Source: an uncultured Gammaproteobacteria bacterium
Lineage (GTDB): Bacteria > Patescibacteriota > Microgenomatia > Levybacterales > UBA12049
Length of the DNA stretch: 64,000 nucleotides
Assembly (NCBI GenBank): GCA_964503265.1
Contig: CAZCYO010000001.1
Span: 290,064 to 354,063 of the forward strand
Direction: 5' to 3'
A program made the position numbers and the translations under genes. The notes under the pieces were generated by a model, which was not told where the DNA came from, searched no databases, and saw only the letters and a list, made by a program, of their open reading frames with translations. This document shows positions 5,587 to 52,818 of the stretch, piece by piece (position 1 is the stretch's first letter; each line of letters starts with the position of its first letter).

Positions 5587-6105
5587 TTAGAGCGTTGCGA
5601 CCACGACAAACCGTTTGGTATCAAATAATCCCGTACATGTATATAAAGTAATTCTCGTATCAGTAGATGGTGCGAGAATACTTTCGTTTGATGGATCGAC
5701 TGTGGCTGTATATACAACAGAAAATGAAGAAGTAGTGTTATTTTCCCCGATTATAGTAATTTTGTCACCAGGTTTAACTTGTGGTAGTTTTCCAAGAAGA
5801 TTCGGCCAATTATGAGCATAGAGGACGCTATTTCCTTTACTACCAGGAAGGGGAGAAGATGTTAAGTAAGAAACTCCTTTATCAGTTGTCGGCCAAGAAT
5901 CACTTAAAATTATCGCAGGAAAAATAGGGAGTGAAACTCCAATTGATGGAATAACAATTCCAATTGGTGCTTCTGCATGCGATGATTGTATATCTGTTTT
6001 GGTATATGCAAAAGCAAGACGTCGTGGAGTTATCCGTTCAAATAATAAATAGGTAGAAAACAGAAGGAGGAGTGTCCCAATGATAAAACAAAGGTTACGT
6101 TTCAT
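5587..6105 (-). CDS. Sortase (class E-like transpeptidase)
   Basis: 172 aa. N-terminal TM anchor, His in VLYAHNW, TLxTC active site in ITLYTCTG, and a downstream Arg in KRFVV. Confidence 0.75.
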   Translation of the reverse strand: MKRNLCFIIGTLLLLFSTYLLFERITPRRLAFAYTKTDIQSSHAEAPIGIVIPSIGVSLPIFPAIILSDSWPTTDKGVSYLTSSPLPGSKGNSVLYAHNWPNLLGKLPQVKPGDKITIIGENNTTSSFSVVYTATVDPSNESILAPSTDTRITLYTCTGLFDTKRFVVVATL

Positions 6106-6117
6106 GGGATGAGTAAA

Positions 6118-6726
6118 TTACTGTACTTTCGATTTAGGAAGAAAAATTCCAGCAATAATTAAACTGATGCCAAGTACGAGTGTTATATAAAAAAGAGCTG
6201 AGTTTCCAGTACTTGCAAGCCCTGTGAGGATGTTCGTTGATGCTCCAAGAACTGATGACTTTGCAGGATCACTTGCTGATGATGAATTACTTGTCCCATT
6301 TGAACTTCCACTTGATCCGTTACTAGATCCTGCACATGAATATGCATTATTCATAGCGAAATACTGTACAGGATCAAGTCCCCAGACTGATCCGTCTGGA
6401 ATTGATGTCCAACCTTGGTTTTTAAGAATTGAAATCTCAGCATCTGAAAATCCGGTATTTTTAAGCCAATTTGTTTGGATTCCCTCATTATTTGTTCCAC
6501 AGAAACATTGCATGGCATTTCCATTTCCAAGTACATAGACTTTGTCACTGCCAGCATATGAACCAGTATTATTTACGATTCCATGTGTGCCGTTATCATA
6601 ACTTGCGATAAGTGTTCCTTGAGGGTTGATACATGCTGAGAAATCAGTATTCGGTGCAGCAAATAATGGCTTAGGTGATAAAGCAAAAAGAAGTGAAGTA
6701 ATTAAAACAAAATGTGTAATTTTCAT
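6118..6726 (-). CDS. Secreted surface protein with Ser/Gly-rich linker and C-terminal LAxTG-type sorting signal (putative sortase substrate)
   Basis: Signal peptide MKITHFVLITSLLFALSPKPLFA. Low-complexity linker SSNGSSGSSNGTSNSSSASDPAKSS. C-terminal GLASTGNSALFYITLVLGISLIIAGIFLPKSKVQ, which reads as LASTG motif, hydrophobic span and basic tail. Lies 12 nt upstream of the sortase gene. Confidence 0.55.
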   Translation of the reverse strand: MKITHFVLITSLLFALSPKPLFAAPNTDFSACINPQGTLIASYDNGTHGIVNNTGSYAGSDKVYVLGNGNAMQCFCGTNNEGIQTNWLKNTGFSDAEISILKNQGWTSIPDGSVWGLDPVQYFAMNNAYSCAGSSNGSSGSSNGTSNSSSASDPAKSSVLGASTNILTGLASTGNSALFYITLVLGISLIIAGIFLPKSKVQ

Positions 6727-6784
6727 GTCTTATAAAGTAATCCTACAGGATTATATCATATCGAATCTTATAGTGCAATATTTG

Positions 6785-7792
6785 TTATTTGGTGTTTGGA
6801 GTGGTGTTTGAGTAATGTGATGAAATAACGGAAACAACCTGTCTAGATTTACCCTTAGAGTCCCATAACTCTGTTGATCCTCCGACATTAACCCAATAAC
6901 TGACACCAATTACTTCAGGTTCTTTAGATAATCTCGTTAACACATCATTCACCCATGATGCTTGTTCTGATTCTGTCATGTCTCCGTGGAGGTCAGGAAT
7001 TGGCGCTCCAAACTCACCGATTACAATTTTTCCACCAGATTTTTTTGCAATTTGTCTAATATCTGAAATCATTTGTGAAGGAGACGCGACATAATGGTCA
7101 ATAGTCACAATTGAATCTAGCGCACTGGTTGTCTGTTTATCCATAACTAATTTTGCTACATCAGCATTCATTGAAAGATAATTTGATGCCACAGCTTTGT
7201 TAAGTTGTTTAAATGTTTGTGTAGTTACTGTATATTCATCGATTAGAAACTGTCTATGTCCACTTACATCGCCTGTTATCCTTGGATCTCCAGGACCACC
7301 GTTTTCACATTCTGGACAAGCAGTGAAAACGTCACCATTTTCAAACAAATCCTTGTGTGACACTATAAACTTTTTAGTCATTTCAATATGCTGGCTACGT
7401 GAAATTGATGAATAACCAAACCACTGTTCCCACCCAGAAAAATTTCCTCGAAACCAAATGCTCAAATGATTTGCTCGAGCTGATGCAACCCACAGTTTTA
7501 GAATTGGAACAAACTCTTCATCATAGGGTGTCGCGATAGCGATATGTGTAGCTCCAGTATCTGCAATTTGTTTTACTTGCTCATTAATGGTTCGAATAAA
7601 AAGTGGATCCGTTAATTTCTCTCGACTCAAATCACGTGAATATTTCATCGTATCAATTGACTGAAATTGCCATTGTTTCATTTCTTTTGTAGGTGATATG
7701 AATTTAACTGTTACGAGAGCGAGACTTACTACTAGTACGATAAGTACGACGATGATAGAAATATATTTATTCATATTATTTTTGTTTTCCAA
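6785..7792 (-). CDS. Membrane-anchored clan GH-A glycoside hydrolase (GH5/GH26-like)
   Basis: 335 aa. N-terminal TM segment, CPECENGGP (NE-type acid/base), and IGEFGAP (nucleophile Glu), in a TIM-barrel GH-A layout. Confidence 0.5.
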   Translation of the reverse strand: MENKNNMNKYISIIVVLIVLVVSLALVTVKFISPTKEMKQWQFQSIDTMKYSRDLSREKLTDPLFIRTINEQVKQIADTGATHIAIATPYDEEFVPILKLWVASARANHLSIWFRGNFSGWEQWFGYSSISRSQHIEMTKKFIVSHKDLFENGDVFTACPECENGGPGDPRITGDVSGHRQFLIDEYTVTTQTFKQLNKAVASNYLSMNADVAKLVMDKQTTSALDSIVTIDHYVASPSQMISDIRQIAKKSGGKIVIGEFGAPIPDLHGDMTESEQASWVNDVLTRLSKEPEVIGVSYWVNVGGSTELWDSKGKSRQVVSVISSHYSNTTPNTK

Positions 7793-9446
7793 GCACTGGT
7801 TTTGTTTGTAATTGAGAAAGATATTCGGGTTTTAATTCATAAATATCAGCAAATGGGAAATGTTTTACTAATGTATAGTCTTTATAGCCTGGCACTTTAC
7901 TGACTGCTTTAAATGTTAAATCGTTATTATCGTTCGTTCTCATGACAATCCATCGTGCCCATCTGTCAGGATTAACTGTCGCTGTTTCCCAGTATGCGCC
8001 AGTTCCTTCATGAATAAATTTAGCCATAGGAAGTCCACTGGAGAAAATAATGGCATCATGTGAAGCTGCTGAAATAAGTATAAATCCTGGTGTGTTTTTT
8101 GTGTGATCACTCAGCCAAGTCGCTACTTCAGAAACGTTTTTTTGACTAGATCCCACTCTCGCGTCGTCAATCGTTACTGCATCCTTATTAAGGAATGTAA
8201 ATATAGATACAAAAAGAATAAGGCCGATGAGAACATATCTAAATGTTTTAAGTTTATAAATAAGGAAGCCGACAAAAATAGCGATACTCGGAGCCATAAG
8301 GAGTCCATAGCGAACGTTAAACCATGTATCTCCTGAAATTCCCTGAACGAAAAGTACAGAAAATCCGAAATAAAGAGCGATTATATTAAATACGAGAGGC
8401 ACCATCAGTGCTGAACACACAACTCTAAGATTTGCTTCTACTTTCTTCTCAAACCACAAAGCAATCGAACCAAAGAATCCAAGCAACAGAATAAATGCAT
8501 TACTATTATATGCGAGAGCATACAAATACACTTTAATAGAAAGAAAAAGATCGTGTTCAGTTGCAAGTACACCTGCAGATGCAAGTTGTTGCTGTTGAGC
8601 GTGAGCTGAGAAAGGACCTAAGATAAAGTACAATGGATCTTTAAAAATTAATAAATTCCATAAAAACCACAGTGCGATTCCAACTCCTGCTAGAGTTGTA
8701 TAGAAAAACGCAGTGCCTTCTGCAACTCGAAATCCTCGTTTTTTAAAACTAAGAAAAAGAATAAGTGCACCTATATATAAAAAGAGGAACCATCCGTCGT
8801 ACCGAATCAGCGTTGAAAGCATAACCCAGAATGATGCTTTTAAAAGATTTAAGAGTGACTCATCTTTCTGCCAAAGAAATAATTCGTATACACTAGCTGT
8901 CATTGTAAAAATAAGTAACAATTCAGTCATCGCAGTGGACTGTAAATAAAGAACATTTATATTCGCAACAAAAATAAATACTCCAACAAGCCTTGATAAC
9001 ATATCTGCTCCAAGTCTTTTTAAGAATAGGTACACAAGCAGACCAGTGCCAACAAAAGAAAACATAGACTGAATTGCGCCTGATAATCCTGTGTGCCACA
9101 TAAAGTCATTCCAGATTGTTGGGACCATAAGTAAATGGGGAAGAGGTAGCCATACACTTCCAATTTGAGCAAGACCAGGTTTTAACCCTTCAACTACACG
9201 TCGTCCGATATCCAAATGAGATCTCGCATCGTTATATGAAAGACCTAAGTGGTTTTGAAGATAAATAACAAATGCACCTATTGAAATAAGAGAAAGAATA
9301 ATAGATAGAATAACTAGCATTCGCTTCTCTATCCAACTACTACAAACAGTTAAGAAACTGGTATTAAATTCGATACTATGCAGGGTAAATTTCATTTCTT
9401 CCTTTCTTTGGATACCATATTGTAGTAAGTCCAACGAGTAATACAA
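7776..9446 (-). CDS. Polytopic membrane protein, GT-C superfamily (PMT_2/ArnT-like) candidate glycosyltransferase
   Basis: 556 aa with more than 10 predicted TM helices. First-loop YNDARSHLDIGRR and WLPLPHLLM are reminiscent of the PMT_2 family. The true start is probably the internal M (MLVILSI...), which avoids the 71-nt overlap with the upstream gene. Confidence 0.35.
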   Translation of the reverse strand: MYYSLDLLQYGIQRKEEMKFTLHSIEFNTSFLTVCSSWIEKRMLVILSIILSLISIGAFVIYLQNHLGLSYNDARSHLDIGRRVVEGLKPGLAQIGSVWLPLPHLLMVPTIWNDFMWHTGLSGAIQSMFSFVGTGLLVYLFLKRLGADMLSRLVGVFIFVANINVLYLQSTAMTELLLIFTMTASVYELFLWQKDESLLNLLKASFWVMLSTLIRYDGWFLFLYIGALILFLSFKKRGFRVAEGTAFFYTTLAGVGIALWFLWNLLIFKDPLYFILGPFSAHAQQQQLASAGVLATEHDLFLSIKVYLYALAYNSNAFILLLGFFGSIALWFEKKVEANLRVVCSALMVPLVFNIIALYFGFSVLFVQGISGDTWFNVRYGLLMAPSIAIFVGFLIYKLKTFRYVLIGLILFVSIFTFLNKDAVTIDDARVGSSQKNVSEVATWLSDHTKNTPGFILISAASHDAIIFSSGLPMAKFIHEGTGAYWETATVNPDRWARWIVMRTNDNNDLTFKAVSKVPGYKDYTLVKHFPFADIYELKPEYLSQLQTKPVLGKQK

Positions 9447-10878
9447 TAAAAAGAACTAGTAAGTAATAGCTAATTCCTGGAATGCTTGTGTGAAGTACAT
9501 AGTTATAGATATAAGAATTAAGCTGGTCTTGCATGATCATTTTCCAATTTGCGAGATAATTTGATACAAGTCCTAGATTTCGTGCTTCAACAAATGGTGG
9601 AATAACATTAGTAGTAAGTGGTGCAAGTAATGATACTGCTGTACTATAGATAAAAACTACACTATAAAGAACTTTCATGAAAATATTAAGTGAGAAGCGT
9701 TGAAGGCCAATTCCTGCTAATATACACAATTCTGGTAAAACAGCAATCATATATCGAGAACCAAAAGCCCATCCACCATACGGATCTCCGAACATGGTAT
9801 AAAGAATTAAACAGGTAAGTGGTACAGCGACTAATCCTATCTCAACAAGCTTTCTTTTTTTATTAAGAATTCCGAGTCCGAGAACAGAAAGTAATACAAT
9901 AGGTGAGTAGACTAGTAGTCCACGATCATTACTAATTAAAAATGAATTAAAACCCTCGAGCATATTTCTTGTATTAAGAGCTTGTCCTGCATTTGCGTGT
10001 TTTTCAGCAACTGACAATGATTTAACTTTTAAATCTTTTACACGTGGAATTGAATTACTCAGCGTCGTCGCTTTACCGAAATTAACATAGTTATAATAAC
10101 CATATCCACACATGAGTGCGACAAACAGAAGTGGAGTAAACACATATGCCCAGTTTATAGAAAGTCTAATTCGTTTTTTTATCGTTTCCCACTGAATTCC
10201 CTGGAATGTAAGTAATACTGCGATTGGCATGAAGATAAATAAATTTGGAAAGTCGACGAATACGCCGGCTGCATAGCATAACCATACGAGGAGACCTTTT
10301 TGAACTGCATGTTTATTCTCCCAAAATAGTGTTAGATAGAGTGCCGAAAGAATAAAAAAAGAAGAAATTAAATGAGCATACAGAGTAACTGAATAACCCC
10401 ATGCATTTGTCGCAAATCCGAATGCTAACGCGCTAAATAGAGATGTTGACCAATGTAAATCTAATTTTTGTGTAAACTTAGCAATTAATAGTACTGTAAA
10501 TAATGCAAAAAGCGTAGAAACAGAGAAGGTAAACAACTGACTCATACCGAGTAATGATCCGAGCAAATAAAACGGAATCGCTAATAACGATGCTCCTATT
10601 GGGAAAAATGAAAAATAATGACCATTAATCTTCCCTATATCAGGTGTTCCCATTGATGCATAATGATCGATATTCACGGTGCGATAATCTACAACCGAAA
10701 GAATGAGTGCCCATCGTGAACGTTCTTGCGATGTTTCAAATGGTTTGCCACTTTTATTAAGCTGATATTCAATTTGTTTCGGAGTTGGATTACCCACGTT
10801 TCCTCGAAGTGTAAGACTGTAGAGAATGAGAGCAATAATCGTCAAAATAATATAAATATATTTATTCATATAACCCAT
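9376..10878 (-). CDS. Polytopic membrane protein, GT-C superfamily (PMT_2/ArnT-like) candidate glycosyltransferase
   Basis: 500 aa, multi-TM. First periplasmic loop with DHYASMG...FFPIGASLLAIPFYLLG in an ArnT/PMT-like arrangement, and a long C-terminal TM bundle. Confidence 0.4.
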   Translation of the reverse strand: MGYMNKYIYIILTIIALILYSLTLRGNVGNPTPKQIEYQLNKSGKPFETSQERSRWALILSVVDYRTVNIDHYASMGTPDIGKINGHYFSFFPIGASLLAIPFYLLGSLLGMSQLFTFSVSTLFALFTVLLIAKFTQKLDLHWSTSLFSALAFGFATNAWGYSVTLYAHLISSFFILSALYLTLFWENKHAVQKGLLVWLCYAAGVFVDFPNLFIFMPIAVLLTFQGIQWETIKKRIRLSINWAYVFTPLLFVALMCGYGYYNYVNFGKATTLSNSIPRVKDLKVKSLSVAEKHANAGQALNTRNMLEGFNSFLISNDRGLLVYSPIVLLSVLGLGILNKKRKLVEIGLVAVPLTCLILYTMFGDPYGGWAFGSRYMIAVLPELCILAGIGLQRFSLNIFMKVLYSVVFIYSTAVSLLAPLTTNVIPPFVEARNLGLVSNYLANWKMIMQDQLNSYIYNYVLHTSIPGISYYLLVLFIVLLVGLTTIWYPKKGRNEIYPA

Positions 10879-10890
10879 AGTATATCAGAT

Positions 10891-12744
10891 TTAGTTCAAT
10901 TTTACTAGTGTTTTCTTGTTTTTGCTATTTATTTTATTTCTATAGAGATCAGATAATAAAATTTTAATTGAAAAAGATACTGACTCTTTTACTATTAATG
11001 ACTTCATGAATAAATGCTCATAGTATGCTCCTATTGGAGATACTAATGTAGCGAATTCTGAGAGTGTTGTACTTCCTTCGATAGAAATTCGATTAATTTT
11101 ATATGGAAATCCATTTTTACTAACTGAACCTCCATTTACAGTAAATGCATGAGAAAAACCTGCTTTTTTAACAAAAGAAATAATTTTTTTTGAATACAGT
11201 CCGCGTGGATAAGCAAAATAGGTAATTTTCTGTCCAAGTTGTTTTTCTAAGTTATTTTTACTTGAAATGATTTCCTTTTCAAGTTCTCGATTTGAGGCTA
11301 AACGCATGTCACTGTGGGTTGCTGTGTGATATCCAATAGTTATATTATTATTAATAAGTTCTTTCATTTCTACTATAGAAACCATAGGTAAATCATTATC
11401 AAGTTGCTGTCTATTTGCATTAGTTGCATCACCTAGGACAAAAAGCGTTGCTGGCATTTTATATTTTTTTAAAATAGAGAATGCATCTGTATAAAAATTT
11501 TTATATCCGTCATCAAAAGTAAGAGCAATTGTATTTTTTTGTTTTGGATTGCTCGTGATTTCATCTAATGAAACAATATTTTTTGTCTTTTTTAGATAAC
11601 GTAATTGTTTTTCAAAATGTGTTGTTTGAATTGAAAATCTCCAAGTACTTTTTCCGACAGAGTGATAACAAAGAATTATAGGAGAGGAAGATATTATATT
11701 ACTTTTATTAAGTATGCCAAGAATTCTCAAACCTACTGCATGAATTCTCTCCACAACACTTATATGAGGAAGTAAATAATCTCTAACATCAGGAAGATAT
11801 CTTGTTAGATAATTTTCACCTGCTATATAGAATTTGTCGTCTTTTGAAGAAATAGCCATGATTTGAAGAGCATAAAAAATGCTTAATCCTATAAATTTTT
11901 TCTTATTTTTAATACCTGGAAGTAACTCATTAAGTAATGTATAAAACTCTTTACCTACGACAGGAAGATATGCCTTAGCGAGAATAGCAAGATCTGTCTC
12001 TTCATCTGCTAATACTGTTACTTCAGTGTCGATTAAATATATATTTTTTCCTGATGTAATAATATTTTCTGAATGAAGATCTCGATGTGCAATTACTAAA
12101 CTCCTTTTAGGTTGATGTACAAAAAGATACATGTTATAAAACGGCAAAATATATGATAAATATTTTTTAACTAAATGTGGTTGTCGAAGAATAAGCCGTA
12201 AAATACTTATATGAAATGAAACAAAAACATGAATCTTAGTTCTCATTGGTAATTGCATTTCCTTTACTTGCTTATTAGTAGATAACGCTCGAAGTTCTAA
12301 AATACATTTTTTCATTATGGAAACCTTATCTTGATTACTATGGCGCGCAATAGTATTGCCCATAAGGTAACTTGTAACAAATGCAGTGATTCCTTTATTT
12401 TCAATGATTCCAATTGGACTAGAAAATGAAAGCACGCTATTTTTATTGTTTTTTGTAATTGCGGAAAGTTTTTTTAAAATGTCATACTCTTTATAAAGTT
12501 GTTTATATGCTGAATTTTTAATTGAGTATCTAACATATTTAATAAATACGGATTCACCTTTTTTATTACTATATATCCCTGTTCCAGCCAAATTATCACT
12601 ATTTTGTTCTTTTATAACGTGCTTTAATTGATATCCTTTAAATGTTGGTACAGACTGAGCAATTTTATTATTAAAAATTTTATCGCTTAAATTAGATAGT
12701 ACCTCTAATAGATTGGAGGTGATAGAAGAAAATATGTTTGTCAT
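10891..12744 (-). CDS. Fusion protein: N-terminal protein-kinase-like/APH-like domain + C-terminal polysaccharide deacetylase (NodB) domain
   Basis: 617 aa. Catalytic-loop-like VIAHRDLHSENII followed by LIDTE (kinase-like fold). C-terminal ALTFDDGYKNFY...ATLFVLGD...GYHTATHSDM is a NodB homology domain with TFDDG and His motifs. Confidence 0.6.
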   Translation of the reverse strand: MTNIFSSITSNLLEVLSNLSDKIFNNKIAQSVPTFKGYQLKHVIKEQNSDNLAGTGIYSNKKGESVFIKYVRYSIKNSAYKQLYKEYDILKKLSAITKNNKNSVLSFSSPIGIIENKGITAFVTSYLMGNTIARHSNQDKVSIMKKCILELRALSTNKQVKEMQLPMRTKIHVFVSFHISILRLILRQPHLVKKYLSYILPFYNMYLFVHQPKRSLVIAHRDLHSENIITSGKNIYLIDTEVTVLADEETDLAILAKAYLPVVGKEFYTLLNELLPGIKNKKKFIGLSIFYALQIMAISSKDDKFYIAGENYLTRYLPDVRDYLLPHISVVERIHAVGLRILGILNKSNIISSSPIILCYHSVGKSTWRFSIQTTHFEKQLRYLKKTKNIVSLDEITSNPKQKNTIALTFDDGYKNFYTDAFSILKKYKMPATLFVLGDATNANRQQLDNDLPMVSIVEMKELINNNITIGYHTATHSDMRLASNRELEKEIISSKNNLEKQLGQKITYFAYPRGLYSKKIISFVKKAGFSHAFTVNGGSVSKNGFPYKINRISIEGSTTLSEFATLVSPIGAYYEHLFMKSLIVKESVSFSIKILLSDLYRNKINSKNKKTLVKLN

Positions 12745-12745
12745 A

Positions 12746-13633
12746 TTATTTAGTTGTCACTGCTGTATGCCAAGAAAGTTTATAATTTGTGGTAATAATT
12801 CGATATAACGGTTTACACAAAAAATTAATTGCTACAATTGTTGTTGTTTCTATGGGAAGGGTAATAAAGGAATGAGCAATAGCAGCAATATAAAAAGTAA
12901 CTGGTCTACTATATTCTTTTTCTACGAGTTCACCAAAATATTTATTTACATTTAAATCAACAGCAGTTGGATTAGATCGAAATAGTTGTTTCAGATAATC
13001 AGACAACTTTGTAGGCAATTTATAATAAACTATCGCGTTTCTGACATGCTTAAAAAGCAGACCTCTTTGAATACATGAGAAATAGATAAAGTCATCATCA
13101 TTAATAATATTTGGAATATGAATTGATTTAGCAAATGCAGTATTAACTAACACACATCCACCATTACACCCGAAGATGTTATTTCCTTGTTTAATCTTTT
13201 TTCGCGATTCATCAAATACTAAAAAAGTACTATATACTGCTCTTTGAAAAAATGAAATTGGTTTAATAGGACGAACATTTCCACCTATTACTGTATATTT
13301 ACCAACATATTTTATAAGGTTAGTAACTACGTTGTTACTTCCAAGTGTTATATCAGCATCGAGGAAAACTATGTTCTCACCAGTTGCATCTTTTATAATC
13401 TTATTGAGACCAAAACATTTTCCTTTTTGCTTTTTACCTTCAATAATAATTATTTTTTTATTACGAATTCTCTTAATTTCAGAAATTGTATTATCTACAC
13501 ACCCATCACAATAAATAACTATTTGTGATAGTGTCCATGATGTTTGTGATTGTTTTAATAGATCAGACAAAAGAGAATAAATATTCTTCCCTTCATTGTG
13601 GGCTGCAATGCCGATAGTTACTGTTTGTTTCAT
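12746..13633 (-). CDS. Glycosyltransferase family 2 (GT-A fold)
   Basis: 295 aa. N-terminal TIGIAAHNEG, IVIYCDGCVDNT, and an LDADI DxD motif. Confidence 0.7.
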   Translation of the reverse strand: MKQTVTIGIAAHNEGKNIYSLLSDLLKQSQTSWTLSQIVIYCDGCVDNTISEIKRIRNKKIIIIEGKKQKGKCFGLNKIIKDATGENIVFLDADITLGSNNVVTNLIKYVGKYTVIGGNVRPIKPISFFQRAVYSTFLVFDESRKKIKQGNNIFGCNGGCVLVNTAFAKSIHIPNIINDDDFIYFSCIQRGLLFKHVRNAIVYYKLPTKLSDYLKQLFRSNPTAVDLNVNKYFGELVEKEYSRPVTFYIAAIAHSFITLPIETTTIVAINFLCKPLYRIITTNYKLSWHTAVTTK

Positions 13634-13635
13634 AC

Positions 13636-14898
13636 TTATCGTGAAAATTGGATAAATGGAGTGTTTGTGCGTGAATACTTTACTGAAAAAGGCATATATG
13701 GAATAGTAATTTTTTTGAACTTTTTCTCTTGCTTTGTAATATCTTTTTTCATGATAAGAGCCATTGCATCTTGTACAGTAGTTGAAATGTACTGCATTTC
13801 TTTTTTAGTCATACCTGCATATAGCGGGAAACGAAGAAGTCTACTACTAGCGCTCTCTGTTACTTCTAAGTCAGATTTTTTATATCCTAGTTTTCGTCCC
13901 TGAGGAGCTGAATGAAGGGGAATATAATGGAAACTTGCAGCTACACCGTGAGAACGGCAGTAATCCATAACTTTATTTCGATCATCAGTATTATTAAATA
14001 ACACGAAGAAAATATGTCCGTTTCCACTAGCGAATTTTGGAAGTGATGGAATAGTAACTAATCCTTTTTTTGCAAAAGGCACCATGAGATTCTTATAAAA
14101 CGAGAAAATGGAAAGTCTCATTTTTGTTATCTCATCAACTTTCTCAAGTTGTGCATAGAGATATGCTGCTAGTAGATCTGATGGAAGATAACTAGATCCG
14201 ATATTTACCCATGTATATTTATCGACAACCCCACGAATGAAGTTGGTTCTGTTCGTTCCTTTTTCACGAATGATTTCTGCATCTTCAATGATCTTTTTAT
14301 TATTTCGATTAATAAGAAGTGCTCCACCCTCACCACAGGTAATATTTTTTGTATCATGGAATGAAAGACACCCGAAGTCGCCTATTGTTCCTAAATATTT
14401 CCCTTTATATTTAGATTCAATTGCTTGTGCTGCATCTTCAATCACAAATAATTTGTGTTTCTTCGCTAACTCCATAATAGGATCCATATCACATGCAACA
14501 CCAGCATAATGAACTACGATAATCGCTTTTGTTTTCTTCGTAATTTTTCGTCGGATATCTTCAGGATCGATATTTAATGTATCGGGTGTTACTTCAGAGA
14601 ACACTACTTTCAGTCCTTCTGAGAGTAAAATAGCATTAACGGTTGATGAAAATGTAAACGATGGAACGATGACTTCATCACCTGGTTTTAAATCACAGAG
14701 TCTTACTGCAAATTCAAGTGCCGTAGTACACGATGTTGTTAAAAAAACCTTTTCAACGTTGTATCGTTTTTCTAAGAATTCATGAACGAGTTTTGTATAT
14801 TTCCCATCTCCAGCTCCATCCATATTATTATCAATAATATCTTTAATATATGTAAGTTCTTTTCCAGTATGATAAGGTTTTGAGAATCGAATATTCAT
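13636..14898 (-). CDS. DegT/DnrJ/EryC1/StrS-family PLP-dependent sugar aminotransferase
   Basis: 420 aa. VIVPSFTFSSTVNAILL, DAAQA, and LSFHDTKNITCGEGGALL (PLP-lysine region), all characteristic of the DegT family. Confidence 0.85.
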   Translation of the reverse strand: MNIRFSKPYHTGKELTYIKDIIDNNMDGAGDGKYTKLVHEFLEKRYNVEKVFLTTSCTTALEFAVRLCDLKPGDEVIVPSFTFSSTVNAILLSEGLKVVFSEVTPDTLNIDPEDIRRKITKKTKAIIVVHYAGVACDMDPIMELAKKHKLFVIEDAAQAIESKYKGKYLGTIGDFGCLSFHDTKNITCGEGGALLINRNNKKIIEDAEIIREKGTNRTNFIRGVVDKYTWVNIGSSYLPSDLLAAYLYAQLEKVDEITKMRLSIFSFYKNLMVPFAKKGLVTIPSLPKFASGNGHIFFVLFNNTDDRNKVMDYCRSHGVAASFHYIPLHSAPQGRKLGYKKSDLEVTESASSRLLRFPLYAGMTKKEMQYISTTVQDAMALIMKKDITKQEKKFKKITIPYMPFSVKYSRTNTPFIQFSR

Positions 14899-14899
14899 G

Positions 14900-16006
14900 T
14901 TATTTTTGCTCCTTTTCTAAAATTTCTTTAAAGAATGTAATAAAGTCTTTTGCAACACTATCCCATGTGTATTGTTTTGCAAATTCTCGAGCATGTTGAC
15001 CAAGTGACTTAGCAACCACTGGATTTGCTGCTTTTACCATAAGTTTTGCGTATTCAGTTACGTTATATGGTTTTGCCTTTAATACACTTTTTGGATCTGT
15101 CCATGCTAATCCAGGGATCGTAAACCCAACCATGCCATTTCCAGATGCTAATGCTTCTAGTGAGAAAAGAGAAAATCCTTCATGTCGTGAAGGGAAAGTG
15201 ACAAATAATGCTTTACTGAGTACTTTTGCTTTTACATCTCCATATGTCGGCCCAATGAGTCTTACACTATCCGTTAATGAAAGTTTAGAAATTAATGTAG
15301 TAATTTTTTCTTTATCAGGACCATTTCCAGCGATTACTAATGGATAATTAATTTTGTTCTTAATTTGTTTATATGCCTGTAATAGTAAATCGATACCTTT
15401 TTGTCCCATATCTAATCGTCCTAGGTATAAAATATATTCAGGGGTACTTTTTTTAATGGTAAAGAATTCTTCTCCAACACCTTGAGGAACGATTTTTGCT
15501 GTAACAGTTTTATTTACCTTTTTCATCTTCTTTAGATTATCGATAGTAAAAGGAAGGAAATATTTATAAAATCGTAGTCCAAATTTTTCAATTCGATCTG
15601 TAGGTAAGTGATACAATGTCGCGAAACGCTCTGCTTCAAATGAGGTAGGGAGACCAACGACAGGGATTTTCGTGAATAATGGTGAGAAGAGGGTCGAAAT
15701 TGGAGCTGTAAAACACTCAACAATAATATCTCCTTGTAGTCGTAAAACGGCAAACGGAAGTGCAAGGATATAGGCAATATTATTAATTCTAATATTCGTT
15801 GTGCCAAGTCCTATATGTCGATAATTCATCCCATTTTCTTTACGGTCTTTATATCCCGGATATCTACTTGAGATAACATCGACTTTATGTCCTATTTTTG
15901 CAATTCGTTTTCCTACCTCAAGTGTAGCCCGAGCTTGTCCTGCCGCAAGAAGCGGATTTTTTATGTCATCAAAATCTAAAAATGTGATATGTAATTTCTT
16001 ATTCAT
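14900..16006 (-). CDS. Glycosyltransferase family 4 (GT-B)
   Basis: 368 aa. C-terminal PSRHEGFSLFSLEALASGNGMVG matches the GT4 E-x7-E region. Confidence 0.8.
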   Translation of the reverse strand: MNKKLHITFLDFDDIKNPLLAAGQARATLEVGKRIAKIGHKVDVISSRYPGYKDRKENGMNYRHIGLGTTNIRINNIAYILALPFAVLRLQGDIIVECFTAPISTLFSPLFTKIPVVGLPTSFEAERFATLYHLPTDRIEKFGLRFYKYFLPFTIDNLKKMKKVNKTVTAKIVPQGVGEEFFTIKKSTPEYILYLGRLDMGQKGIDLLLQAYKQIKNKINYPLVIAGNGPDKEKITTLISKLSLTDSVRLIGPTYGDVKAKVLSKALFVTFPSRHEGFSLFSLEALASGNGMVGFTIPGLAWTDPKSVLKAKPYNVTEYAKLMVKAANPVVAKSLGQHAREFAKQYTWDSVAKDFITFFKEILEKEQK

Positions 16007-16008
16007 AG

Positions 16009-19000
16009 TTATTTACTCGCAAGTGAAATAGCGCCTGTACTATTTGTGATTGTTTTGTCAATAATAAGTCGGTAGAACATATCTGCACTTGTTCCCCAAT
16101 TGAAATTTTGTGACCAGAAATACGCATTTTCAGATAATTGATTTCTGTATGCTTTATTTTTAATAACTTTCGTTAGCGCTACTTCAAGTTCAGAAATATC
16201 TCGAACTTTAACCAGTATTCCTGTTTCGTTATGAATGACTGAATCTTTAAGCCCACTGACGTTTGATGCAATAACAGGTGTGCCAGCAGCGTTCGCTTCA
16301 ATAACTGTAATACCCCAACCTTCAGCCATTGATGGCTGTACAACAACCCAACTTGTAGCAAGTAGTGTTGCTTTATTTTTTTCGGTTACTTTTCCATAAA
16401 ATGTGATTGCTGTTGTAAGACCTAATTTTTTAGTTAGTTTCATAAGTTTTTTCTTACTTTCTCCCTCTCCTATAATCGAGAACGTTGATTCTGGGAATTT
16501 AGCATGTATTTTTTGAAAAGCTTTAATGGCAACATCAATATTTTTATATGGCTTTAATCGTCCAATATATGTAATAGTTGGGTTTTTCGTTTTTTTCTTT
16601 CGAGTAAAAGTTGCATGATTAATTCCGTTATGGACGACTTGAATATCAGATGCTTTAGTAATTCCTAGTTTTGTTAATGCAGATTTTGAAGATTCAGAAA
16701 CTGTAATAACAGATTGGTTTCGATAAACGAATGGCATCACTGTTCCTTCTAAGAATCGAGCAATTGTAGAGAGAGGGAACATCAGATGTTCTCGGAACAC
16801 TTCCTGATGCACATGATGAACAAGGAGAAACGTCTTTTTACTCGTATAAAGAGGAGTAAAGAATGGAATTCCATTTTCACAATCAATGATAACGTCATAT
16901 TTGCCACGGAATTTTAAGACATAGTAAAGAAACGCCCACAGGTAAACCAGATACGCTCCACCTCTTCGAATAACTTCTACTCCATCAACCGTTTGTGTGC
17001 GTGAACTATGACCATCGTTTCCACAAAATAGTGTCACAGCGACATCATTTTTTACCCATCTTTTTGCAAGTTCTTGAATATATGTTTCAGCTCCGCCAGA
17101 CCATTTATGATGGGTATCTCTCCAATTAAAAATAAGAATGTGCGTTTTTCCTGATTCTGGTTGAATAGTAGATGTTCTTATAAATAATCCGAAAAAATCC
17201 GCAATAGCTCGTTCTATGTTTCTTACAAAATCAATATTAAGATGGAGAAGAATTGCTATAAAAAGATTAAGTCCTCCAACTACATACATTGCGAATACTA
17301 GAGAAAATACCGAAGAGTGATTAATGTAAACTAATCCGAATTGTAATAATGTCAGAAGAAAGCCTAGCGCCGAAAACATGTAAACTTTTTTTACAAGATA
17401 ATATGATGTATAAACTCTTGAGATAGTGAAACAGAACATAGCAAAAGCATAAAAGAGAATAAATGGAATAATAGCTTGAGATTTAGAACCTAATAAAAAT
17501 GGTAATGTAAATGGTGCTAAGACTCCAAAAAATAGAAAGCCAGCAAAAGCAAGAAGGATTGTTCCGAGAAGGATAAGTTGAAATGTTTTCTTTGGATTTG
17601 TATTTGCACCCTCATGACGACTTACGAGTGGTGTCACAAATTGTGTCGCTAAATTCCCTAAGAAATATATCATTTTTCCAGCTAACGCGAGCAGTGAGTA
17701 AATACCTGCATCAGTTTTAGTTAAAAAATGATTCGCGAGAATAATATCAAGACTTAAGAAGCTCATTGTGGAAAGTCCTGAAATTGCTGATGCAGTAAAA
17801 AATCGTCTTGAAATGTATGATATTTCTCTTTTTGTGGCTGTATGTTTTTTTGTTTCTTGATTACGCTTCACATAAATCCAAGCTATAAAGAACGAGCCGA
17901 CAGTCGAAAAAGGAATTGCAATATATGCATATTGTGAAAGATTGAAAGTAACTGCAGCAATAGCAATTGCAAGTTTAAGTATTGGTTCACTAATTGTAAC
18001 GATTGCCAAGGCGCTAAATAATAGCTTTCCTGATAAATATCCTGTATCAACGGCCGTAATGAATGAAGCAATAATATATGGAGCAAAGAGTAAGAAGGGA
18101 AGGATACTAGACGTGTGAAAATAATTACTTAAGAAAATAGATGAGGCACTCCATAATCCGGCAGTTACTAATCCTGCAATTAATGTCTTTTGTCGAAATT
18201 CTTTCCAAAAAGAAAAAGCAGCAGAGATGCCATATTTTCCGGCAAGAAATCCACTTCGATATTTCACAGTTGAACTTAATGCTGAAACAGGGATATTAAC
18301 GATATACAGAAAACTTCCGACTAAACTTACTTCTGCAAAATATTGGATATCAATGACACGTCCTAAATAAGCATTAAAAATGAAGTTAAGGATGTTACTA
18401 AATACGGCTGCTGCTATTAGTGCACCACCACTGACGTATGCGATTTTTATACGGCCAAATAATTCAGCAATTCTCGATGGTTTGGCAGGAACAAAAGGTG
18501 TTTCAACTTCCTCAACCACTTCTTCTTCAGTATCAGCTTTTTTCAAATGAAGTCCGTGAACTGTTTTTTCCCAATAGTGAGGTTTAAAAATGAGCTGTTG
18601 GAGTGCCATAAGCCCAGCGACACTGATGAGTAACCAGTAAAGTGGAATAAAAAACACATATTTTACGAGTTCGTAGTGTCCTCGTTTAATACAACCGATC
18701 ATATAATAATAAAGAAACAGGAAGTTACCAACGATAAGTGAGAACGCAGCCATATAAAAGATATATGAAGGATACAGTGATTCAATGGTCGGACCGACGA
18801 TTGCATAGAGTGTAAAGTACGAAATAGTAGCAAGCCAAAGTAATGGATTAATGAGAATAAAGGCAATTTTCCCACCAATAGTGAGATGGAAAAATAAATT
18901 ATGAATTTTCTGGTTTTTTATATCTTTGATAATTTCTCTGTTATGGACGAGGTAGGTTTGCATATATCCTTTGATCCATCGTGAACGCTGACGAATCCAG

Positions 19001-20889: not shown

Positions 20890-20963
20890 TGACCCCAATG
20901 GGATTCGAACCCATGATTTCCGGGATGAAAGCCCGGCGTCCAAGGCCGCTAGACGATGGGGCC
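20890..20963 (-). tRNA. tRNA-Glu (anticodon UUC)
   Basis: Reverse complement GGCCCCATCGTCTAGCGGCCTTGGACGCCGGGCTTTCATCCCGGAAATCATGGGTTCGAATCCCATTGGGGTCA. Cloverleaf folds with anticodon loop CTTTCAT and a GGTTCGAATCC T-arm. Confidence 0.85.
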
Positions 20964-21903: not shown

Positions 21904-21975
21904 GGGCCGGTAGCTCAGTGGTAGAGCAGGAGCCTTTTAAGCTCTTGGTCGCGGGTTCGACCCCCGCCCGGCTCA
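21904..21975 (+). tRNA. tRNA-Lys (anticodon UUU)
   Basis: GGGCCGGTAGCTCAGTGGTAGAGCAGGAGCCTTTTAAGCTCTTGGTCGCGGGTTCGACCCCCGCCCGGCTCA. Anticodon loop CTTTTAA with a canonical D and T arm. Confidence 0.85.
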
Positions 21976-31656: not shown

Positions 31657-31660
31657 TATA

Positions 31661-31740
31661 GTCATCCTGGAGCCCCGATGAACATCGGGACGATAGGATC
31701 TCACCAAGTGGGATTCTATCACTTCGTTCCAGAATGACAA
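31661..31740 (+). repeat. ORF-less inverted pair of hairpin repeats (MITE-like)
   Basis: GTCATCCTGGAGCCCCGATGAACATCGGGACGATAGGATCTCA at 31661-31703 and inverted TGTCATTCTGGAACGAAGTGATAGAATCC at 31711-31740, separated by 7 bp. Confidence 0.55.
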
Positions 31741-31749
31741 TAACTATAT

Positions 31750-51773: not shown

Positions 51774-51845
51774 TGAGCCAGGGGGGACTCGAACCTCCAA
51801 CCGATTCCTTAAGAGGGAATTGCTCTACCATTGAGCTACTGGCCC
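51774..51845 (-). tRNA. tRNA-Lys (anticodon CUU)
   Basis: Reverse complement GGGCCAGTAGCTCAATGGTAGAGCAATTCCCTCTTAAGGAATCGGTTGGAGGTTCGAGTCCCCCCTGGCTCA. Anticodon loop CTCTTAA. One A.C mismatch in the T stem. Confidence 0.8.
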
Positions 51846-52690: not shown

Positions 52691-52764
52691 TGCATCCGTA
52701 GCTCAGTGGATTAGAGCATCTCGCTTCGGACGAGAGGGTCGGGGGTTCGAGTCCCTCCGGGTGC
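52691..52764 (+). tRNA. tRNA-Arg (anticodon UCG)
   Basis: GCATCCGTAGCTCAGTGGATTAGAGCATCTCGCTTCGGACGAGAGGGTCGGGGGTTCGAGTCCCTCCGGGTGCA. Anticodon loop CTTCGGA. Confidence 0.85.
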
Positions 52765-52818
52765 ACATCGTTAATTTACCCTCTTTCTTTATCCTTCATT
52801 TTTTTCTACTATAGATGT

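Follow-up and report, generated by a model that had tools for sequence, protein, structure and literature searches.

GT-C enzymes use polyprenyl-(di)phosphate sugars as donors. The CE4 deacetylases NodB and HfsH work in the cytoplasm on a GT2-made biosynthetic intermediate before its export, and WaaP and WaaY (LPS core), POMK and FAM20B are PKL-fold kinases that phosphorylate a sugar hydroxyl while the glycan is being built, which serves for tailoring or as a checkpoint. Patescibacteria (CPR), which are ultra-small, account for a large share of bacterial diversity; to our knowledge, all cultivated members live attached to host cells. In Gram-positives, pairs of GT2/GT-A and GT-C proteins decorate Ser/Thr-rich regions of sortase-anchored surface proteins or wall polymers (PMC5856776, PMC12041528). 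The CotS/YtaA spore kinases share gene clusters with GT4 glycosyltransferases and genes for nucleotide sugars and offer a precedent for CAK kinases in glycan settings (PMC2860764), and ArnD is described as a NodB-like, membrane-associated esterase (PMC10967932).

The window analysed here, a 64,000-nucleotide stretch of an uncultured CPR bacterium, carries a gene in which a kinase-like domain is joined to a NodB deacetylase domain (Table 1). We consider it reasonably probable that its product is a soluble, cytoplasmic, bifunctional glycan-tailoring enzyme belonging to a CPR cell-surface glycan/glycoprotein cassette.

Table 1 Features of the fusion gene and its cassette (positions in the window)
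Feature	Position	Strand	Basis
Kinase-like::NodB fusion gene	10891..12744	minus	Uninterrupted 617-aa ORF; AF2 pLDDT 89.6, pTM 0.79
CAK/APH-type protein-kinase-like domain, aa ~30-345	11710..12657	minus	Pfam APH in relatives; Foldseek
K69, putative beta3 ATP-binding lysine	12538..12540	minus	Conservation; AF2 strand 65-72
E86, putative alphaC glutamate	12487..12489	minus	Conservation; AF2 helix 78-99
HRDLHSEN catalytic loop, aa 220-227 (Brenner motif HxDxxxxN)	12064..12087	minus	Conservation; alignment to known kinases
IDTE, aa 238-241 (predicted DFG-equivalent metal-binding D239, and E241)	12022..12033	minus	Conservation
D251-L-A, CAK-family motif after IDxE	11986..11994	minus	D in 36/37 fusions; APH(9) alignment
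NodB (CE4) de-N-acetylase domain, PgaB/IcaB/PplD/BA0330 subtype, aa ~352-570	11035..11691	minus	PF01522; PDB; Foldseek
LCYH, His361	11662..11673	minus	H361 invariant 37/37; PgaB/IcaB similarity
TFDDG, aa 409-413 (MT1: predicted catalytic base D411, metal ligand D412)	11506..11520	minus	F410, D411, D412 invariant 37/37
HTATH, aa 473-477 (MT2: predicted metal-binding His473, His477)	11314..11328	minus	Both His invariant 37/37
AYPRG (MT3-like)	11200..11214	minus	A511, Y512, P513, G515 invariant 37/37
Long basic C-terminal helix, aa 570-616	10897..11037	minus	AF2 helix; 9 K/R versus 3 D/E
1558-aa GT2-GT2(synthase-like)-polytopic membrane-GT4, first cassette gene	16009..20685	minus	Pfam; TM segments
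GT4 glycosyltransferase	14900..16006	minus	PF00534 E=2e-20
WecE-type sugar aminotransferase (dTDP-4-amino-4,6-dideoxyhexose)	13636..14898	minus	NF008687, 527 bits versus cut-off 375
GT2 glycosyltransferase, upstream, 1 nt from fusion gene start	12746..13633	minus	PF00535 E=5e-17
m500, downstream GT-C fold glycosyltransferase, ArnT/PMT-like	9376..10878	minus	AF2 pLDDT 91.5, pTM 0.93; Foldseek
m556, second polytopic membrane protein	7776..9446	minus	56-65% identity across loci; weak NCBIfam LA_3751/LA_3752
Distal genes p335, p202 and sortase	5587..7792	minus	Synteny in L001, L008, L010, L011, L016

The initial annotation had read the gene as a single protein with a kinase-like/APH fold followed by a NodB deacetylase, and this reading held: the motifs HRDLHSEN and IDTE, TFDDG and the His motifs were all present, no gene boundary separated the halves and the same fusion recurred in relatives. 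The AlphaFold (AF2) model of the whole protein was confident, and Foldseek recovered both folds from it. A search of the 617-aa protein for a signal peptide or transmembrane (TM) segment found none; having neither, the fusion is predicted to be cytoplasmic. In three relatives in which a GT-C domain follows (P0040, P0076 and L011), a helix matching aa 570-616 precedes TM1 of that domain, and the C-terminal helix may contact the membrane or a GT-C protein.

In the AF2 model, the N-terminal half adopted a bilobal fold with a helical CAK-type C-lobe, helices 137-207 and 250-345 flanking the catalytic strands. Foldseek matched this half to APH(3')-IIIa (2bkk, 6e-10, TM-score 0.62 on the target) and further to HSK2 (2ppq), APH(9) (3i1a), FN3K (3jr1) and YtaA (2q83), with E values of about 1e-9 for APH(3')-IIIa, homoserine kinase II, APH(9) and fructosamine-3-kinase. 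The N-terminal half of the window protein alone gave APH and choline-kinase matches of 18.7-20.1 bits against a Pfam gathering score of 23.2, and no curated Pfam or NCBIfam family reached threshold for it. Its family was better resolved: PF01636 was matched by six of six aligned members (best E=1.7e-10) and is on record as a precomputed match for the relatives P0002 and P0003, and the family profile matched solved kinases among PDB sequences. Conservation was scored in 37 fusion proteins and 63 stand-alone kinases. The ATP-binding lysine and HRD aspartate expected of such a fold were conserved, with lysine at residue 69 in 35 of 37 fusions (arginine in the other 2) and in 56 of 63 stand-alone kinases; E86, H220, D222, N227, D239 and E241 were invariant in all 37 fusions, and D239 also in 63/63 stand-alone kinases. 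K69 and E86 are equated with the beta3 Lys and alphaC Glu by their position in the AF2 model rather than by an inspected superposition. The HRDLHSEN loop aligned with its counterparts in APH(9), choline kinases and Ser/Thr kinases, with D222 as predicted catalytic base and N227 as predicted Mg binder, and D251-L-A, judged also from the APH(9) alignment, probably corresponds to the 'D-I-A' motif known from APH and choline kinases. The N-terminal domain is thus predicted, from sequence and model, to be a CAK-branch ATP-dependent phosphotransferase with an intact active site.

For the C-terminal half, PF01522 matched aa 399-531 with E=4e-29 (101 bits versus a threshold of 23.1), the PDB sequence matches 4v33 and 4hd5 reached 1e-15, and Foldseek returned BA0330, PplD, PgaB and IcaB (4v33, 6dq3, 4f9j, 4wcj) at 1e-12 to 2e-15, upholding the NodB assignment with its (beta/alpha)-barrel fold. 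PgaB and IcaB belong to the CE4 enzymes with circular permutation (Nishiyama 2013, cited by PMC10967932), and since they are among the best structural matches, His361 is, by analogy, the probable catalytic-acid His, that is, the permuted MT5 His of a circularly permuted PgaB-type CE4 motif set. Membership of the PgaB or IcaB families themselves was rejected at 75 versus 322 bits and 69 versus 248 bits, respectively, and because enzymes of these families lie outside the cytoplasm and act on secreted PNAG, whereas this domain has no signal peptide or TM segment and follows a cytoplasmic kinase. The domain is predicted to be a metal-dependent NodB de-N-acetylase of PgaB/IcaB type, its active site intact.

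An exhaustive HMMER search retrieved 363 family representatives at E<=1e-30. The initial annotation had called the architecture uncommon, but among the ~150 best representatives alone it was carried by at least 40 clusters at 50% identity, 38 with the order kinase-NodB and 2 with the order reversed, and one relative bears the automatic IMG name 'deacetylase/thiamine kinase-like enzyme'. In 18 cassette loci, kinase and NodB were fused in 10, encoded by adjacent split genes in 2 (L013, L018) and separate yet within the cassette in 2 (L014, L017). Because both domain orders, adjacent-gene forms and at least 40 clusters exist, the fusion is no assembly artefact; fusion in either order, neighbouring genes and a shared operon all tie the two domains together. 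Other cassettes had NodB without kinase (L015, L019), kinase without NodB (L086) or, in L087, a kinase together with a PIG-L/LmbE deacetylase, which stands in for NodB immediately before the m500 homologue; this replacement points to cytoplasmic de-N-acetylation as the selected function. As cassettes without kinase or without NodB exist, the two steps need not share one molecule: de-N-acetylation and phosphorylation are probably separable, not chemically obligate. Of the coupling between the two activities that had been proposed for the protein, what survives is membership of one glycan pathway, evident from conserved synteny and from fusions of the kinase with every neighbouring enzyme type, whereas L015, L019, L086 and L087 make an obligate chemical coupling unlikely.

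The ~320-aa kinase domain also occurred as a stand-alone gene inside the biosynthetic operon and was fused to GT4 (P0065, P0073), GT2 (P0087), GrpB-GT2 (P0095) or GNAT (P0170), was placed between DegT and GT2 (P0121) or formed part of kinase-NodB-GT-C triple fusions (P0040, P0076, L011). Such fusions serve as a Rosetta-stone map of enzymes that work together, and the kinase clade appears restricted to the CPR glycan cassette. The fusion was the least conserved enzyme of the cassette, with 34% identity in the closest cassette (L010) versus 58-64% for GT4, DegT, m500, m556 and p335, suggesting a tailoring rather than a core role.

The cassette itself spans ~15 kb and is common to many Patescibacteria, being present in Microgenomates, Parcubacteria and Saccharibacteria MAGs, with a kept order of multi-GT, GT4, [DegT], several GT2s, kinase/NodB, m500, m556, p335, p202 and sortase. 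The 1558-aa multi-GT shared 46-54% identity with its counterparts in the related loci that have it, and 37-40%, partly aligned, in L016/L019. Orthologues of the GT2 that precedes the fusion (41-50% identity) lay directly upstream of it in L001, L002, L007, L009, L010 and L012; in the window this GT2 had no clear TM segment, non-specific PDB and NCBIfam matches and a weak match to PgfS (E=3e-5). Downstream, the m500 model was matched by Foldseek first to ArnT (5f15/5ezm, 7e-5) and then to Pmt4, ALG3, STT3, Emb/Aft and PglB, and m500 shared 32% identity (E=3e-61) with the C-terminal portion of the triple fusion P0076. The most conserved gene of the cassette, m556, probably encodes another GT-C protein and weakly matched the NCBIfam putative glycosyltransferases LA_3751/LA_3752; its annotated TTG start, which makes it overlap m500, is probably too far upstream. 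At the operon end, p335 had an N-terminal TM segment and a weak glycosyl-hydrolase-like match, p202 is a sortase substrate (signal peptide, Ser/Gly/Asn-rich linker, LASTG, TM segment and KSK tail), and the sortase matched PF04203 (E=3e-20).

By analogy with ArnC/ArnD/ArnT, the fusion probably acts on a lipid-linked sugar, a logic that draws on the GT-C fold of m500 with ArnT as its top match, on the donor type of GT-C enzymes and on the ArnD precedent. In such a route, the cassette GT2 and GT4 enzymes would first assemble an intermediate with a HexNAc at the cytoplasmic side of the membrane, probably with polyprenyl phosphate as its carrier, as ArnC, GtrB and PgfS do. The NodB domain would then strip the N-acetyl group to leave a free amine, taking the place that ArnD has between ArnC and ArnT, and the kinase domain would phosphorylate a hydroxyl group on that intermediate or on a neighbouring one. 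Once flipped, the tailored unit would be passed by the ArnT/PMT-like GT-C enzymes encoded downstream to a wall polymer or to the Ser-rich sortase-anchored protein from the operon end. Against a lipid-linked role, the NodB half was closest by sequence to PgaB, IcaB, PplD and BA0330, which are extracytoplasmic and act on polymers, and was not close to ArnD or HfsH; the cassette GT2s are candidate polyprenyl-phosphate sugar synthases at most, the window GT2 having no clear TM segment and non-specific matches. A cytoplasmic intermediate, probably a lipid-linked one, is a more likely substrate than free chitooligosaccharide or GlcNAc, because signal peptide and TM segments are missing from the protein and relatives carry it fused to an ArnT-like GT-C. 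A bolder version of this route, which we regard as rather unlikely, is that the kinase domains form a hitherto uncharacterised, CPR-specific glycan-kinase clade acting at the cytoplasmic face on a polyprenyl-phosphate-linked amino sugar, with phosphorylation directly coupled to de-N-acetylation and the GT-C adding a zwitterionic phospho-hexosamine to a wall polymer or sortase-anchored glycoprotein.

The fusion might instead supply precursors by salvage. The kinase would then be a sugar or amino-alcohol kinase whose small-molecule product, for example an anomeric HexNAc/HexN-1-phosphate such as NahK/AmgK make or a phospho-alcohol such as the choline kinase LicA makes, is nucleotide-activated and passed to the cassette glycosyltransferases, with NodB working on a free sugar or oligosaccharide. 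NodB enzymes, however, seldom use monosaccharides. The P0095 fusion, which joins the kinase to GT2 and to GrpB, which has a nucleotidyltransferase fold, would suit salvage, as would P0121, in which the kinase sits between GT2 and a WecE-type aminotransferase, an enzyme that uses nucleotide sugars. Salvage also agrees with the occurrence of kinase and deacetylase each without the other, with choline/ethanolamine kinase as the best Pfam matches after APH, and with small molecules being the usual substrates of CAK kinases (PMC2860764). Yet in the window cassette Pfam recognised no sugar-1-phosphate nucleotidyltransferase or LicC/LicD-type gene, NahK and AmgK were absent from the top sequence and fold matches, and the kinase-NodB-GT-C fusions fit membrane action on a GT-C donor more easily, so that we hold salvage to be a minority possibility. 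A regulatory protein kinase that phosphorylates itself or its partners (GTs, GT-C, NodB) and controls cassette output, as Hanks/BY-kinases do in wall and capsule synthesis, seems improbable. Its catalytic loop does read H-R-D-L-x-x-x-N-I-L as in Hanks kinases, and, against a small-molecule or glycan role, the family profile scored Hanks-type Ser/Thr kinases as well as APH/choline kinases: its best PDB E values were to bacterial/eukaryotic Ser/Thr kinases (2.6e-8 for 4eqm/9ymt), it matched MARK2 over the N-lobe, and Pfam Pkinase was found in 4/6 members (best E=4e-6). The window protein, however, scored only 13.6 bits against Pkinase (PF00069; gathering score 31.7), no activation segment or APE motif followed IDTE, the CAK-type 'IDxE...D-L-A' motif was kept, and the all-helical C-lobe superposed on APH, HSK2 and FN3K over 270-350 columns. 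A stand-alone operon gene combined with fusions to five enzyme types is, moreover, a pattern typical of pathway enzymes.

We give hardly any credence to an antibiotic-modifying role, in which an aminoglycoside/aminocyclitol phosphotransferase and a deacetylase would together give resistance, although an aminoglycoside-like substrate had been suggested initially and the top folds were APH(3')-IIIa, APH(3')-Ia, APH(3')-IIa and APH(9), with a weak NCBIfam APH(3') match. That match reached 19.4 bits versus a cut-off of 205 (NF033068, APH_3p), and 14.3 versus 530 for APH(3')-IIIa; the PDB set of CAK folds is dominated by APH structures, which biases the match list. Unlike a mobile or accessory resistance gene, the gene is a fixed part of the conserved glycan cassette throughout many CPR lineages, its context is purely one of glycan assembly and its fusion partners are all glycan-assembly enzymes. 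It is also very doubtful that the protein is a catalytically dead scaffold, a pseudokinase and/or pseudo-deacetylase merely organising a membrane glycosylation complex: CAK families do give rise to pseudokinases (PMC2860764) and a few stand-alone family members are substituted at D222 or N227, but the catalytic residues of both domains are invariant or nearly so in the 37 fusions despite overall identities of ~30-35%.

In this cassette a giant multi-GT, ArnT/PMT-like GT-Cs and a sortase with its substrate are joined with two tailoring activities that were repeatedly fused in evolution. If the kinase acts on a glycan intermediate, the short list of protein-kinase-fold glycan kinases (WaaP, POMK, FAM20B) would gain a new bacterial clade, and an ArnD-like step of unmasking the amine before flipping would operate in a Gram-positive-type envelope. 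Should the rather unlikely glycan-kinase-clade reading be true, the route from GT2 through NodB and kinase to GT-C would be without described equivalent and could be a conserved determinant of the CPR surface and of host attachment. Saccharibacteria, in which the cassette is present, include genetically tractable cultivated strains.

Set against known systems, the kinase half shares with the CAK kinases (APH(3'), APH(9), LicA, homoserine kinase II, fructosamine-3-kinase, CotS/YtaA) the bilobal fold, the Brenner motif, IDxE, D-L-A and a helical substrate-binding C-lobe; unlike them, it forms a separate clade with an HRD-type catalytic loop, as in Hanks kinases, and its clade is joined to NodB, GT2, GT4, DegT and GT-C. 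WaaP/WaaY, POMK and FAM20B are not fused to deacetylases, POMK and FAM20B work in the secretory lumen, and no specific sequence or fold relationship of the kinase half to any of these was detected. PgaB, IcaB, PplD and BA0330 are the closest relatives of the NodB half in sequence and structure and have in common with it the N-terminal 'xxYH' His, DD and HxxxH motifs, but those enzymes are exported, to the periplasm or outside the cell, and work on completed polymers; without an export signal and fused to an ATP-dependent kinase, the NodB half must work in the cytoplasm. NodB and HfsH follow the same cellular logic and were matched in NCBIfam at E=7e-12 and E=0.039, respectively, although at 45 versus 240 bits and 13.6 versus 400 bits (equivalog cut-offs), and neither has a fused kinase. 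The Gram-positive PgfS/PgfM1/PgfM2, GtrB/PgtC2 and CsbB/YfhO systems resemble the window cassette, which has a GT2, two GT-C-like proteins, a Ser-rich LASTG protein and a sortase, but they lack a kinase, a deacetylase and a 1558-aa multi-GT. The Arn pathway, which modifies lipid A with aminoarabinose, differs in that it contains no kinase, the bacterium here is a CPR member of Gram-positive-like type that has a sortase but lacks a lipid A context, and a lipid-linked monosaccharide as substrate of the fusion is proposed by analogy; an ArnD model was absent from the 20 NCBIfam matches of the window protein at E<=1, and an ArnD structure from the top PDB matches by sequence and Foldseek. Its likenesses to the locus are an aminotransferase (ArnB, comparable to the DegT/WecE type) together with a GT2, amine unmasking by a NodB fold that would occur on the cytoplasmic face, a GT-C acting outside the membrane, and ArnT as the best structural match of m500. 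An ArnC/ArnT-type partnership can be seen in the arrangement itself, with a GT2 upstream of the fusion, an ArnT-like GT-C downstream and, in relatives, a GT-C fused to kinase-NodB.

The 617-amino-acid fusion of a kinase-like half with a NodB deacetylase half is encoded by one uninterrupted reading frame, in which all four motifs named in the initial annotation were located: HRDLHSEN at residues 220–227, IDTE at 238–241, TFDDG at 409–413 and HTATH at 473–477. The C-terminal half matched Polysacc_deac_1 (PF01522; residues 399–531, E=4e-29), and a PDB sequence search with the fusion returned the NodB enzymes BA0330 (4v33, 1.6e-15), PplD (6dq3), IcaB (4wcj) and PgaB, along with a weak match to APH(3')-IIIa. 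For the single protein, Pfam and NCBIfam matches of the N-terminal half were sub-threshold and all fell around residues 203–280; they comprised APH (18.7 bits versus a gathering score of 23.2), choline kinase, the LanM kinase-like DUF4135, Bud32 and fructosamine kinase. Alignment of six kinase halves revealed invariant K69, E86, H220, D222, N227, D239, E241 and D251. The profile of this alignment matched spectinomycin phosphotransferase (1e-5), choline kinases and bacterial and eukaryotic Ser/Thr kinases in the PDB, and all six members matched Pfam APH (best E=1.7e-10). An AlphaFold2 model, built with a 37-sequence alignment of fusion proteins (mean pLDDT 89.6, pTM 0.79), was compared with the PDB using Foldseek: the C-terminal half matched BA0330, BC0361, PplD, PgaB and IcaB (E 2e-15 to 1e-12), and the N-terminal half matched APH(3')-IIIa (6e-10), homoserine kinase II, APH(9), fructosamine-3-kinase and the YtaA spore kinase over 270–350 columns. 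The modelled N-terminal half is of the choline/aminoglycoside-kinase (CAK) type, with a beta-rich N-lobe that bears a single long alphaC helix, with hinge and catalytic strands separated by a helical insert and, past the metal-binding Asp, with an all-helical lobe that has no activation segment. Thus, both earlier fold assignments, kinase-like/APH and NodB, hold.

Across the 37 fusion proteins, whose pairwise identity is only ~30–35%, the kinase half retains invariant E86, H220, D222, N227, D239 and E241; the ATP-binding Lys (K69) is present in 35 and replaced by Arg in two. Invariant residues of the NodB half are H361, D411, D412, H473, H477, E491, A511-Y-P-x-G515 and R552. Because catalytic residues are kept in such diverged proteins, both domains look, on sequence grounds, capable of catalysis and maintained by purifying selection. 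The fusion studied here is itself a divergent member, with its closest database relative just 38% identical. A chimeric assembly or two-gene read-through was ruled out: the frame contains no stop, frameshift or gene boundary between the halves in this genome, the order is collinear in 37 homologues, the model is confident across the linker helix, and split versions part exactly at the domain boundary.

Kinases require ATP, and since neither a transmembrane (TM) segment nor a signal peptide is predicted in the fusion, both of its activities must, on this prediction, be cytoplasmic, whereas PgaB, IcaB and PplD, the nearest relatives of its NodB domain, act outside the cell. Two intact active sites reside within one cytoplasmic polypeptide. 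In the model and the sequence, the protein ends in a basic helix of 47 residues (9 K/R versus 3 D/E), which in triple fusions with a GT-C domain lies immediately before the first GT-C TM helix; it might touch the membrane or the GT-C.

An initial word-indexed homologue search yielded five proteins with both halves. The near-uniqueness that this count implied was rejected as a sensitivity artefact: run exhaustively with HMMER against 1.84 billion cluster representatives, the kinase profile retrieved 363 of them at E<=1e-30 and 1,804 at E<=1e-3. Local HMMs for each half, applied to the best ~150 representatives, distinguished 106 kinase-only proteins (most ~320 aa), 38 kinase–NodB fusions, 8 tandem kinases and 2 NodB–kinase proteins; the reversed order, NodB first, is seen in the homologue P0005. 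Pfam analysis of long 'kinase-only' proteins uncovered further partners: GT4–kinase (P0065, P0073), kinase–GT2 (P0087), kinase–GrpB–GT2 (P0095), WecE-type aminotransferase–kinase–GT2 (P0121, by its IMG name), kinase–GNAT/Acetyltransf_6 (P0170) and kinase–NodB–PMT_2-like membrane domain (P0040, P0076). In P0076, the membrane portion at the C-terminus shares 32% identity (E=3e-61) with m500, the product of the gene immediately 3' of the fusion, so that each type of enzyme surrounding the kinase here is covalently linked to it in at least one relative. Triple fusions of kinase, NodB and GT-C span 1,089–1,117 aa (P0040, P0076 and positions 13415–16684 of the related locus L011), and L011 carries a plain 567-aa fusion within the same cassette. 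The architecture has already been met by annotation pipelines, as one fusion bears the IMG product name 'peptidoglycan/xylan/chitin deacetylase/thiamine kinase-like enzyme'; literature searches for the fusion or for a Patescibacteria (CPR) cassette found no paper.

The fusion is part of a conserved surface-glycan cassette with GT2, GT4 and GT-C enzymes, whose order is kept on contigs of Patescibacteria, Parcubacteria, Saccharibacteria and Levybacteria MAGs (taxa by contig names, which include Microgenomates and Woesebacteria).

Features of the glycan cassette and its surroundings in the window
Feature	Position	Strand	Remarks
Cassette operon	20685 to 5587	-	~15 kb
1, GT2-GT2(synthase-like)-polytopic-GT4 protein	16009-20685	-	1558 aa
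2, GT4			
3, WecE-type aminotransferase			NF008687, 527 bits vs cut-off 375
4, GT2			1 nt from fusion start
5, kinase-NodB fusion	10891-12744	-	617 aa
6, m500			polytopic membrane protein, 500 aa
7, m556	7776-9446	-	polytopic membrane protein, 556 aa
8, p335			TM-anchored, 335 aa
9, p202	6118-6726	-	202 aa; signal peptide, Ser/Gly/Asn-rich linker, LASTG, TM segment, KSK tail
10, sortase	5587-6105		
tRNA genes (four)	20890-20963, 21904-21975, 51774-51845, 52692-52765		
Serine-type genes	29839-32820	+	605-aa D-2-hydroxyacid dehydrogenase (SerA-like)-HAD phosphatase (SerB-like) fusion, then class-V aminotransferase (SerC-like)
Lowest G+C in the window	12001-14000		29.5-31.8% vs ~37-45% elsewhere; covers fusion, GT2, DegT

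The 1558-aa protein comprises a GT2, a second, synthase-like GT2 (Glyco_trans_2_3) and a C-terminal GT4, with ~12 or more TM segments in overlapping predictions from residues ~270 to ~1150. Its homologue in L087, another cassette locus, has a weak Polysacc_synt (flippase-like) match in the membrane part, suggesting that the protein may both polymerise and translocate. At the distal end, p202 is a sortase substrate adjoining the sortase gene; it has a Cys-containing globular part, its linker contains GSSNGSSGSSNGTSNSSSAS, and it is a plausible O-glycosylation acceptor of the cassette GT-C enzymes. The best-conserved cassette gene is m556 (56–65% identity across phylum-level relatives), which, like m500, encodes a GT-C-like protein; it falls in no Pfam family and shows a weak LA_3751/LA_3752 putative-GT match alone. 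The TTG start listed for m556 gives a 71-nt overlap with the upstream gene, and for that reason translation probably begins at a later codon. A tRNA gene directly 5' of the first cassette gene marks the operon boundary. Upstream, the annotated 21–33 kb region holds unrelated housekeeping genes, and neither RmlA/RmlB nor a flippase was found there; the SerA-, SerB- and SerC-like genes within it look like a compact serine-biosynthesis module. The two least conserved cassette enzymes, the fusion and the GT2, both lie in the low-G+C part of the window, as does the well-conserved DegT; this pattern would fit a quicker turnover or exchange of the tailoring genes. TPA MAG contigs of seven cassette loci (L007, L010–L013, L015 and L018) are titled 'uncultured Gammaproteobacteria/Pseudomonadales bacterium'; given their sortase and CPR cassette content, these titles are probably a labelling artefact, reflecting placeholder or erroneous taxonomy.

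Modelled by AlphaFold2 with database homologues (pLDDT 91.5, pTM 0.93), m500 matched by Foldseek, in order, ArnT bound to undecaprenyl phosphate (5f15, 6.6e-5), Pmt4, ALG3, STT3, EmbA/B, AftA/B and PglB, all of them GT-C enzymes. GT-C enzymes draw sugars from polyprenyl-(di)phosphate carriers at the outer face of the membrane. PDB sequence searches with m500 and m556 gave no match, and the GT-C relationship was seen through the fold search alone. The fusion is linked to a GT-C both physically, in its relatives, and genetically. Bacterial pairs of GT-A and GT-C enzymes have been described (PMC12041528, PMC5856776); neither the PDB search nor NCBIfam supported the cassette GT2 as a polyprenyl-phosphate sugar (Und-P-sugar) synthase.

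Domain arrangement was scored at 18 cassette loci. Kinase and NodB are fused at ten, including L011 with its two copies, the triple fusion there being 1,089 aa. They are adjacent separate genes at two (L013, 322 + 276 aa; L018, 299 + 267 aa) and lie apart within the cassette at another two (L014, L017). NodB occurs without the kinase at L015 and L019, and the kinase without NodB at L086. At L087, a kinase–Acetyltransf_6 (FemAB-like GNAT) fusion (10001–12031) is accompanied by a PIG-L/LmbE deacetylase (14043–14846) at the NodB position, a non-orthologous replacement which argues that the selected function is cytoplasmic de-N-acetylation of a GlcNAc-type glycoside; the arrangement at L087 also hints at possible re-acylation of the freed amine in certain lineages. 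The fusion is also the cassette's least conserved enzyme, at 34% identity to its counterpart in the closest cassette (L010), compared with 58–64% for GT4, DegT, m500, m556 and p335, which fits a tailoring rather than a core role.

We consider it very probable that both domains are active and serve this glycan pathway in tailoring. The GT2 and GT4 enzymes would build an intermediate containing HexNAc, with polyprenyl phosphate as the probable carrier, and the NodB domain would unmask an amine, the step that falls to ArnD, a membrane-associated NodB-like esterase (PMC10967932), in the sequence from ArnC to ArnT. The kinase would phosphorylate a hydroxyl of the same or a neighbouring intermediate, and the GT-C proteins would pass the tailored unit, once flipped, to one of two acceptors, a wall polymer or the Ser-rich LASTG protein. 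That the substrate is lipid-linked is a tentative assignment, close to an even call, and that the kinase targets the very sugar deacetylated by NodB is rather doubtful. Cassettes with just one of the two activities suggest independent decorations that gain from co-localisation, and the loci with NodB or kinase alone argue against a chemically coupled pair; the coupling of phosphorylation and deacetylation proposed initially is thus unlikely to be chemically obligate.

Should the kinase instead supply precursors, as a sugar-1-kinase or a LicA-like amino-alcohol kinase, its choline-kinase matches and its GrpB and DegT fusions would be explained, and small molecules are the general substrates of CAK enzymes (PMC2860764). 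The cassette, however, has no recognisable nucleotidyltransferase, and a GT-C fusion fits poorly, making this role unlikely. Among NCBIfam, Foldseek and PDB profile matches, nothing specifically supported an anomeric kinase of the NahK/AmgK type, which we rejected. Regulatory protein phosphorylation would accord with the HRD-type loop and the Ser/Thr-kinase matches of the family profile, but the C-lobe is of CAK type and the fusion pattern is that of a pathway enzyme, and we regard this role as improbable. Invariant catalytic residues make a pseudoenzyme scaffold more improbable still. The aminoglycoside-like substrate suggested initially found no specific support, and aminoglycoside resistance is scarcely credible: PDB-biased fold matches and nothing else speak for it, against an NCBIfam score of 19 versus 205 bits.

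Under tailoring by both domains, the reading we favour, three elements are not known to have been described: the kinase clade itself, its systematic fusion to cytoplasmic PgaB-type NodB and to GT2, GT4, DegT and GT-C, and the CPR-wide cassette. The NodB domain belongs to the known CE4/NodB superfamily and the kinase domain to the CAK branch of the protein-kinase-like superfamily, for which CotS/YtaA provide a precedent among GT4 genes (PMC2860764). The pathway logic of the cassette resembles that of the Arn system and of Gram-positive GT2 + GT-C glycosylation systems.
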